IMG/VR virus record: IMGVR_UViG_2695420624_000002
Location: 1-18,279 of that record
Length of the DNA: 18,279 nt
Source: a virus
Lineage: Duplodnaviria > Heunggongvirae > Uroviricota > Caudoviricetes
Strand: one strand, 5' to 3'
In this document: one piece after another, positions 15,118 through 16,200 of the stretch
How positions within the stretch are numbered: the first letter of the stretch is position 1
How the letters are laid out: each line of letters begins with the position of its first letter
Translations under genes and position numbers: made by a program
The notes under the pieces: model-generated
The model's input: the letters and a program-made list of their open reading frames with translations, nothing else
Told to the model about the DNA's origin: nothing
Database searches by the model: none

Positions 15118-16200
15118 TTATCCCCTGAAACCAGGCGGAATTTCTGTATCAGGTTCAGAAATATGATTCACACAACGCTGGTTGTTCGTGCCGCTTACCG
15201 GGAGCAACCAAGGGTTCTCAAAATTCCGGTCCGGTCCAAAAAACGTCGTCGCTCGCTGAACAAATTCCGTTCCCGTCTTCCCGGTAGCCGCCAGGTATCT
15301 TGCGTAACGCCTCACACCATCCAGCATGGCCTCTGGTAGCACCCCCTCGCGTAACCTGGCTTTCCAGGCACTGAAAGCGGATTTCTTCGGGTTTGCCCCG
15401 GCACGCAACGGGTATTCCCGCCAGACCTGTTCGAACACATCAGGATAATCCACTCGTCCCACAGGCTGCCCGGTGTTTTCCGGGACTACCCGATCGGCTT
15501 CCCGCTGAATGGCGGAATCGGCTTCAGGCTGCTGAAGTTGGTGTGATTGCTCCTGCCTTGCGGTCATCACCTGCTGCACAGCGCCCGAATCGGCTTTCAG
15601 CGCATACGCTGAATCGGCTTCCGGTGTCGTGCCTGCTGGCTGACCAAGATTGACGGTCTGAACATCCCCTGCCTGGTTCGTGGCGTTTTTTACGCCATGG
15701 ACCATAGTGTTTTGATCTTCTTGATCTGTATCTTTATCTGTATCTTTATCTGTATCTTTATCTGTCGTGACTCGTCGTGACATGTGCGTGACATTTCGTG
15801 ACTCGCCGTGACAATCGCCATTTTGTTCCCGCTTTCTTTCCCTCTCTCGCTGCGCCCTCTTGCGCTCTGCCGGAGATTTTGCGGTTTGCGAAATATTGCC
15901 GTTGTCCTCTTTCAGCACCTGGCGTTTTTCCCATCCAGTGATTAAATCACCATCAAGTACCCGCCCCTGCATCGTCTGCAAAATTGAATCAATTACCTCT
16001 TCTGTCACGTCGAGCGCACTTGCCAAATCTTCTGTCGTGACATCAATGTGACCTCGCGTGACATTTCGTGACGCGCTCACCAGGAGGTGGATATACACTG
16101 CCATCACTGTTGCAATTGGCTGCCCTGACACCCTGGCAATTGTTCGCCACTTAGGGTCATTTGGCATGTCATGCCATAATCTGAGCCAGGCGTTAGCCAT
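15118..16200 (-). CDS. Putative replication initiator / replisome-organiser protein containing ori-like iterons
   Basis: Position directly downstream of the cro/cII-like genes; two arrays of 10-11-bp-phased CGTGAC iterons inside the coding sequence; low-complexity linker (DKDT)n; probable start ATG 16200 with RBS GAGGTG (the track start at 16206 is a GTG). Confidence 0.55.
   Translation of the reverse strand: MANAWLRLWHDMPNDPKWRTIARVSGQPIATVMAVYIHLLVSASRNVTRGHIDVTTEDLASALDVTEEVIDSILQTMQGRVLDGDLITGWEKRQVLKEDNGNISQTAKSPAERKRAQRERERKREQNGDCHGESRNVTHMSRRVTTDKDTDKDTDKDTDQEDQNTMVHGVKNATNQAGDVQTVNLGQPAGTTPEADSAYALKADSGAVQQVMTARQEQSHQLQQPEADSAIQREADRVVPENTGQPVGRVDYPDVFEQVWREYPLRAGANPKKSAFSAWKARLREGVLPEAMLDGVRRYARYLAATGKTGTEFVQRATTFFGPDRNFENPWLLPVSGTNNQRCVNHISEPDTEIPPGFRG
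15724..15759. repeat. Three perfect tandem copies of the 12-bp unit ATCTGTATCTTT (encodes the DKDTDKDTDKDTD linker)
   Basis: Direct reading of the sequence; a fourth partial copy follows and runs into the first iteron array. Confidence 0.8.
15766..15812. repeat. Iteron array 1: five CGTGAC repeats spaced 10, 11, 10 and 10 bp apart (candidate origin of replication)
   Basis: CGTGAC at 15766, 15776, 15787, 15797 and 15807; helical phasing is typical of initiator-binding iterons; lambda ori likewise lies inside gene O. Confidence 0.55.
16036..16072. repeat. Iteron array 2: four (C/T)GTGAC repeats spaced 11, 10 and 10 bp apart
   Basis: Repeats at 16036, 16047, 16057 and 16067; shares the identical 16-mer CGTGACATTTCGTGAC with array 1. 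Confidence 0.5.

Follow-up and report, generated by a model that had tools for sequence, protein, structure and literature searches.

The window analysed here, 18,279 nucleotides (nt) long (IMG/VR virus record IMGVR_UViG_2695420624_000002, positions 1 to 18,279), is a lambdoid prophage of Escherichia coli 2015C-4136CT1, integrated beside a tRNA-Ser gene and mtfA. Its replication initiator gene carries, within the coding sequence (CDS), two clusters of short phased direct repeats (iterons), one inverted copy of the same hexamer, an A+T-rich tandem repeat and a palindrome (Table 1). These repeats, a putative origin of replication, are the subject of the present work. The initial annotation had placed them inside the open reading frame (ORF) of a replication initiator, and this assignment was borne out by a DnaD-like model of the N-terminal fold, described below, and by the match of the encoded protein to phrog_3729 (replication initiation protein) among the PHROG profiles (E=9.5e-255). 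The C-terminal two thirds of the protein (amino acids (aa) 131-360) also matched phrog_1701 (DnaD-like helicase loader; E=2.6e-62), and remote matches were obtained to 'replisome organizer' families (E=1.9e-7 and 9.4e-6). Close relatives of the protein are labelled 'phage replisome organizer' by NCBI. Pfam returned no match to the protein at E<=0.01, the Phage_rep_org_N, RepA_N and lambda-O models included, and the sole NCBIfam match was a weak one, to DnaT, at aa 337-360 (the last 24 aa).

Table 1. Features of the initiator gene and its repeats (positions are those of the window)
Feature	Position	Strand	Basis and remarks
Replication initiator gene	15118..16200	minus	ORF, translation and RefSeq CDS; 360 aa; WP_021559925.1, RefSeq annotation 'hypothetical protein'
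Folded N-terminal winged-helix domain (predicted), coding region	15925..16200	minus	about aa 1-92
Array 2, four helically phased iterons	16036..16072	minus	gene nt 129, 139, 149 and 160; encodes loop aa 43-55
Single inverted iteron	16004..16009	plus	GTCACG on the plus strand; CGTGAC in gene sense, gene nt 192-197
Array 1, five phased iterons	15766..15812	minus	gene nt 389, 399, 409, 420 and 430; disordered linker-coding segment, aa 130-146
(GATAMA)n A+T-rich tract, purine-strand-biased	15706..15765		six hexamers plus two GATC sites; Tandem Repeats Finder (TRF); encodes DKDT linker
Imperfect palindrome	15674..15704		31 bp, 13 pairs; just past the A+T-rich tract; arms TGGTTCGTGGCGT…ACGCCATGGACCA
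DnaT-tail-like C-terminal 22 aa (SEPDxxIPPGFRG)	15121..15186	minus	phmmer against PDB; tail …NHISEPDTEIPPGFRG

Array 1 consists of five exact copies of CGTGAC on the plus strand, at 15766, 15776, 15787, 15797 and 15807 (spacing 10, 11, 10 and 10 bp), as had been described. TRF reported it as a period-10 array at 15764-15813, directly abutting a period-12 array. Array 2 had been said to hold four more copies. Four phased sites are indeed present, but only those at 16036, 16057 and 16067 are exact, the one at 16047 being a one-mismatch TGTGAC (GTCACA in the gene sense, nt 149); its equivalent is exact in most relatives. The inverted iteron, absent from the initial annotation, has its centre 32 bp from that of the last direct iteron of array 2 and encodes the turn of a helix-turn-helix. 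Both arrays contain the word GCGTGACATTTCGTGAC, at 15786 and 16056, which extends to 17 nt where 16 had been reported, and they are separated by 223 bp edge to edge or 270 bp start to start, the earlier figure of 245 bp being approximate. Nine of the 13 CGTGAC sites of the window fall in 15766-16072. Five copies of one 6-mer within 50 bp did not occur in any of 200 Markov-1 simulations of the window, where the maximum was four (in 2/200).

The period-12 array next to array 1 comprises three perfect copies of ATCTGTATCTTT at 15724-15759 plus a half copy, the order of units being (GATAAA GATACA)x3; TRF delimited it to 15719-15765 (period 12, 3.9 copies, 97% matches). It encodes TDKDTDKDTDKDTDQ. 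With a GC content of 26-27%, the tract is among the 0.2-0.3% least stable 30-60-bp segments of the 18-kb window. The palindrome folds as DNA with -8.7 kcal/mol (z=-2.9).

We scanned one genome per species and obtained 38 loci with a coding sequence for the N-domain (46-99% identity). They stem from Enterobacterales, Pseudomonas, Bordetella, Acidovorax, Aquitalea, Chromobacterium, Gilvimarinus and other taxa across the Gamma- and Betaproteobacteria. Most of the 38 loci carry both arrays and the inverted copy at matching gene positions, array 2 keeping its position in the gene in about 22 diverged homologues. Equivalents of array 1 have three to six copies and always abut the A+T-rich tract. A repeated 6-mer is common to the array-2 and array-1 zones in 30 of the loci. 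Three classes of iteron were found, GTCACG, GTAACG (L021, L024, L032 and L035) and GAACGC, the last also seen as CGAACGC (L029, L031, L033 and L037); within a locus the class is identical in the two arrays, and in L024 the inverted copy is altered as well, to GACGTTACAG. Spacing within arrays is 10 bp in 116 cases and 11 bp in 31, and the hexamer is read in three frames, as S-R, V-T and G-H.

Selection on the DNA itself was assessed at synonymous sites, the comparison being limited to codons with the same four-fold degenerate amino acid in 21 homologues (about 55-90% aa identity). Mean third-position entropy was 0.20 bits at the 12 sites in iteron cores as against 1.66 bits at 25 sites in the rest of the domain (Mann-Whitney p=6.6e-7). 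The Val and Thr codons of the cores are GTC and ACG in 21/21 homologues, whereas Val and Thr codons outside the cores use all four bases. Conservation at these sites is equally strong in the two arrays. The inverted copy is conserved as GACGTGACAGA in most homologues, and its synonymous site 195 is G in 18/18. The earlier reading of the hexamers as iterons is thus upheld by DNA-level selection in both arrays.

The genes flanking the initiator and its C-terminal domains vary across the loci (lambda-P-like gene, NinB, DUF977, or an ATP-binding protein gene with IstB_IS21/Bac_DnaA matches), and the N-domain is therefore the only constant partner of the iterons. In the E. albertii locus (L003, 3145-3165), array 2 is longer by 21 nt in frame, that is, by two iterons, seven codons and two helical turns. 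One Pseudomonas locus (L027, 3170-3260) contains a large insertion in which copies of GTCACG/GTGAC run in either orientation. The helical phase between the arrays clusters to some extent (R=0.47, among phylogenetically dependent sequences with gaps of 130-319 bp), which gives no firm support for rigid looping.

The tract adjoins array 1 in all 27 aligned homologues, with a GC content of 17-43% (17-37% in 26/27), even in genes of 57-66% GC. Its codons are strongly biased: GAT:GAC was 84:2 in the tract vs 130:128 in the N-domain (Fisher p=3e-18), and AAA:AAG 70:12 vs 71:86 (p=7e-10). The motif AGATAAG is retained in six loci despite a different reading frame. The tandem repeat, taken before as a linker only, does encode a linker, but it is also a DNA-conserved A+T-rich tract abutting the iterons, and on these sequence features it is a candidate DNA unwinding element, the counterpart of the A+T-rich region of lambda.

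Comparison across related prophages agreed with the initial annotation that the copy number of the tandem repeat is variable, the tracts of E. coli prophages having 3, 4, 5, 6, 7, 8, 10 or 11 hexamers (six in the window). The modal allele has four, in 69 of 81 copies (80 from IMG/VR plus the window) and in about 1497 of the 1664 complete genomes with a match. Five intact array 1 iterons were found in 80 of the 81 E. coli prophage copies. The viral-contig scan yielded only near-identical E. coli prophages and thus informs copy number, not diversity. Tract length alters the linker, the extent of the tract and the distance from iterons to palindrome. It had also been suggested to set the distance between iteron clusters; the repeat lies outside the interval between the arrays and therefore cannot alter their spacing.

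Beyond the tract the sequences of the homologues diverge completely, and partial matches in E. coli end within the tract, at query positions 596-626. The tract is therefore also the point where shuffling joins different N- and C-domains. C-domain type and downstream partner gene appear to vary together, relatives with other C-domains having a lambda-P-like gene or an ATP-binding protein gene (IstB_IS21/Bac_DnaA matches) downstream. Two such arrangements were observed. In strain C3 (L041) the N-domain of the present initiator is joined to a DnaT-like C-domain, and the next gene is lambda-P-like. In O157:H7 (L040 and L127) the C-domain of the present initiator follows a dissimilar N-terminal sequence, and the next gene codes for an ATP-binding protein.

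An AlphaFold model of aa 1-146 (mean pLDDT 75; 88-96 over most of aa 11-90) gave five helices plus a beta wing, a winged helix resembling the N-terminal domain (NTD) of DnaD. Array 2 codes for the loop between helices 3 and 4, and array 1 together with the tract codes for a linker predicted to be disordered and of low complexity. The array-2-encoded loop is rich in Arg, Asn and His, and it may either help to read the DNA or be carried along passively; an acidic loop, e.g. SEERGEV, occupies the equivalent of aa 43-55 in homologues without clear iterons. At the other end of the initiator, its final 22 aa and the C-terminal tail of the E. coli primosomal protein DnaT are nearly identical, and the phmmer matches 6aep_A, 2ru8_A and 9zbt_D cover the last 21-24 residues only. 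The last 63 nt of the gene are found again, at 91-98% identity, in further prophage genes of E. coli, including one annotated 'phage replication protein O'. These observations suggest a portable motif, possibly for recruitment of the host primosome or helicase.

Taking these observations together, we consider it likely that the repeats are the replication origin of the prophage, lambda-like in build and residing in the gene of its own DnaD-like initiator. Array 1 is proposed, on the comparisons above, to be the core initiator-binding site. We infer the following course of events. The N-terminal winged-helix domain would bind the GTCACG iterons, which, being 10-11 bp apart, would all be on one face of the helix. 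The five bound copies of array 1 would form a nucleoprotein complex next to the (GATAMA)n tract, which would melt under supercoiling and/or transcription through the initiator gene, and the C-terminal DnaD-like domain with its DnaT-like tail would recruit the host helicase machinery. Array 2 and the inverted iteron would be auxiliary sites for the same protein, most likely stabilising the complex by looping or dampening initiation and expression.

The closest likeness is to the lambda origin. In lambda, as proposed here (and also in the Stx phages P27 and 933W), the origin lies mid-gene at the boundary of the N- and C-domains of the initiator, with the same order of iterons, an A+T-rich purine-biased tract encoding a D/T/K-rich linker, and a palindrome. 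The distance into the gene is almost equal (O-gene nt 349 to ~510 in lambda; gene nt 389-527 here), and both genes follow cro-like and cII-like genes. Iterons in the middle of O together with an A+T-rich tract make up the lambda origin, and two iterons and the tract suffice for unwinding (PMC7466680). Iteron number varies in frame in lambda too, extra iterons adding amino acids to O (PMC7466680), and the 21-nt extension of E. albertii is likewise in frame. The lambda origin was correctly described before as one iteron cluster: NC_001416 has four annotated iterons (O-gene nt 349-433) in a single contiguous cluster, followed by ACACAAAAGACACTATTACAAAAGAAAAAAGAAAAGATTATTC and then by an inverted repeat. 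There are differences, however. The iterons here are 6-bp direct cores every 10-11 bp, whereas those of lambda are 19-bp inverted repeats about 20 bp apart, bound by dimers; the window has no P gene; the initiator has no sequence similarity to O (no Pfam match at the threshold given above); and the extra cluster with its inverted copy, in the part of the gene coding for the DNA-binding domain, has nothing comparable in lambda. The system would thus be lambda-like in its working, but with direct 6-bp cores and no O-family Pfam match it is not a member of the O family. The palindrome of the window may correspond to that of the lambda origin or be a hairpin for single-strand initiation, and a degenerate copy of it is present in the O157-type gene described below.

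Two side observations concern this part of the gene. The palindrome scores as terminator-like on the plus strand, antisense to the initiator gene. In E. coli the tract is flanked by a pair of GATC (Dam) sites with a 9-bp separation (15706-15722), and AGATCT is found at the equivalent place just after the A+T-rich tracts of L007, L012, L019, L025 and L026; these relatives are mostly enterobacterial. The GATC sites may point to control of the origin by methylation or SeqA.

In fold and gene layout the present initiator is closer to DnaD-like initiators, such as pSK41 Rep of the RepA_N plasmids, than to O. The NTD and CTD (C-terminal domain) of pSK41 Rep are DnaD-like, and the protein binds Rep boxes placed centrally in the rep gene, the encoded linker being dispensable (PMC5703833). 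In contrast to the Gram-positive RepA_N plasmids, the present system is a proteobacterial prophage whose initiator has no RepA_N Pfam match; it has two clusters where those plasmids have a single central one, and its hexamer-repeat tract is distinct. Other systems with two binding sites differ in arrangement. Iteron plasmids and phage P4 (ori/crr) likewise have two separated clusters with the same iteron, only one of which adjoins an A+T-rich region, but their clusters lie outside the initiator CDS and their initiators are Rep_3-type or primase-helicase proteins, whereas here the second cluster is inside the region coding for the DNA-binding domain. The cluster that does not adjoin the A+T-rich region in F (incB/incC), P1 (incC/incA), RK2 oriV and P4 (ori/crr) controls copy number or enhances initiation. 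As for the replisome organizers (SPP1 G38P, lactococcal phage Rep), the oriL of SPP1, which we take to lie within the gene for G38P itself, and oriR are tens of kb apart, whereas the two sites here are about 230 bp apart in one gene. G38P, a further initiator akin to the DnaD-like ones, is known to bind oriL as well as the second site, oriR (PMC5615212).

The design recurs in a second family of initiators. The O157:H7-type initiator (L040, 1497-2588, minus strand; L127) is 91% identical to that of the window in its C-terminal half and dissimilar in its N-terminal sequence. Its iteron, AAGGGGCTT, is spaced by 11 bp and forms two clusters, one upstream in the helix-turn-helix coding part (gene nt ~185-207) and one downstream (gene nt ~441-474), the latter followed by a purine-rich (GAACAG)n hexamer repeat, which is conserved in the family as (GARCAR)n. 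Both clusters and the hexamer repeat are retained in homologues from Klebsiella, Salmonella, Acinetobacter and Burkholderia (L129-L132; 60-79% identity); in the last two genera the iterons of the downstream cluster are reverse-complemented relative to those upstream. That two N-domain families whose iterons are unrelated share a design of two clusters plus a hexamer repeat speaks for some function of the upstream cluster.

Several observations weigh against the proposed origin. The putative recognition helix shows almost no variation between the three iteron classes, and no recognition-helix residues segregating with iteron class were found in the N-domain alignment; the only N-domain segment that tracks the class is the array-2-encoded loop (ASRNVTRGHVDVT vs ASNATERGRTQNVC). 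Array 2, or the pair of arrays, is missing from five to eight distant homologues. The O157-type (GAACAG)n tract, though purine-rich, is not clearly A+T-rich, and an unwinding element may therefore not be the whole story. DnaA boxes were absent near the repeats and not in excess in the window. No separate helicase-loader gene lies beside the initiator in the window, a lack that the DnaT-like tail may explain. The prophage copy itself shows decay: its integrase is frameshifted and, compared with phage Evi, it carries an inserted IS110. Finally, no publication on the origin of this initiator family was found in the literature searched, which is not proof of absence.

In a rival reading the initiator binds the iterons, but array 2, and possibly array 1, would act in control alone, by transcript-roadblock autoregulation, titration or handcuffing between copies, a role known from the second clusters of iteron plasmids; array 2 would then stand outside the origin proper. 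We hold this to be possible but doubtful. Array 2 has no A+T-rich tract of its own, and the inverted copy stands three helical turns away from it; in iteron plasmids an inverted copy at such spacing binds initiator dimers for repression. Some homologues without array 2 keep one or two iterons in the array-1 zone along with the tract, and the loose conservation of inter-array phase, in sequences that are not independent, would also suit mere control. However, there is no evident promoter to repress: a promoter and terminator scan gave nothing above shuffle expectation, bringing up only the palindrome and, within the iterons, a weak -35-like match in antisense direction. The equal synonymous conservation of array 2 and array 1 likewise speaks against a role in control alone, as does the second array at a similar distance in the O157-type initiator, an arrangement that also fits a structural role.

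Alternatively, the repeats might serve another protein or process, whether a partition centromere, the neighbouring YdaT/CII-like or Cro-like regulators, or an element acting in mRNA. The adjacent regulators do bind DNA, and phased direct repeats in two blocks resemble the centromeres of the ParR type, of which plasmid R1 parC has two sets of 11-bp repeats. This possibility is nevertheless very improbable, as the window has no partition genes, the genes flanking the initiator vary among homologues that retain the iterons, no Rfam family was found in the repeat region, and the inverted copy and the helical phasing point to duplex DNA and not to RNA. Least credible is that the repeats are a by-product of constraints on the protein (an SRNVT peptide and the DKDT linker) with no function in DNA: the two copies of the 17-mer share a reading frame, giving SRNVT twice, and the tract encodes a low-complexity disordered linker, but a protein-level origin was rejected on the synonymous-site evidence (core four-fold sites fixed, all codons used for the same amino acids elsewhere), the three reading frames of the hexamer and a 10-11-bp period that fits the DNA helix and not codons, with AGATAAG kept in another frame in six loci and AT-ending codons in the tract even where the gene has up to 66% GC.

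Returning to the origin reading, a bolder form of it may be stated, which we regard as unlikely. The two families have a common bipartite layout, with one cluster in the CDS of the DNA-binding domain and a second ~230-260 bp downstream beside a hexamer-periodic purine-rich tract. This layout might be obligatory throughout the superfamily of DnaD-like phage initiators, the initiator bridging the clusters into a loop needed for firing and the array-2-encoded protein loop helping to read the iteron. If true, the binding site and part of its reader would be one stretch of DNA, co-evolving by construction.

The initiator gene is preceded by genes for a DicA-like repressor, a Cro-like helix-turn-helix (HTH) protein and a YdaT/CII-like protein. 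It is followed by a DUF977/Ren-like gene, likewise the next gene in phage Evi, and then by IS110. The IS110-family transposase gene (13101-14378, minus strand) lies between the DUF977 gene and a downstream HTH regulator, and phage Evi has none there. RefSeq marks the integrase, the DUF6645 gene and the TerB-family gene of the prophage as frameshifted or interrupted, and this copy is therefore probably defective. Deposited phage genomes, those of Evi and Tritos among them, also carry the initiator module, with the gene at full length and 95-99% DNA identity. On the late-region side, Rfam identified a sok antitoxin RNA beside hokD, the sRNA STnc100 and three tRNA genes (11162-11336, 7051-7223 and 7997-8243, all on the minus strand). 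A 45-bp tandem repeat at 1707-1797 (2 copies, 82% matches), inside overlapping long ORFs and unrelated to the origin, contains nested 9-bp repeats rich in CCNGGN-like units.

The intragenic layout of an origin is known from lambda; the conserved second cluster within the CDS of the DNA-binding domain goes beyond that paradigm. The initiator allele is matched in 2433 of 5426 complete E. coli genomes, in 1647 of them at full length (95-99% DNA identity), though the RefSeq name of the protein is mostly 'hypothetical protein'. The present analysis places the putative origin within ~400 bp, a candidate minimal replicon of a very common type of E. coli prophage. A DNA element shared at the repeat tract would explain why initiator domains are shuffled exactly there. 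The natural series of tracts, from 3 to 11 hexamers, offers a means to follow the effect of unwinding-element or linker length on firing, and the conserved second cluster could reveal a step of looping or control in phage replication.

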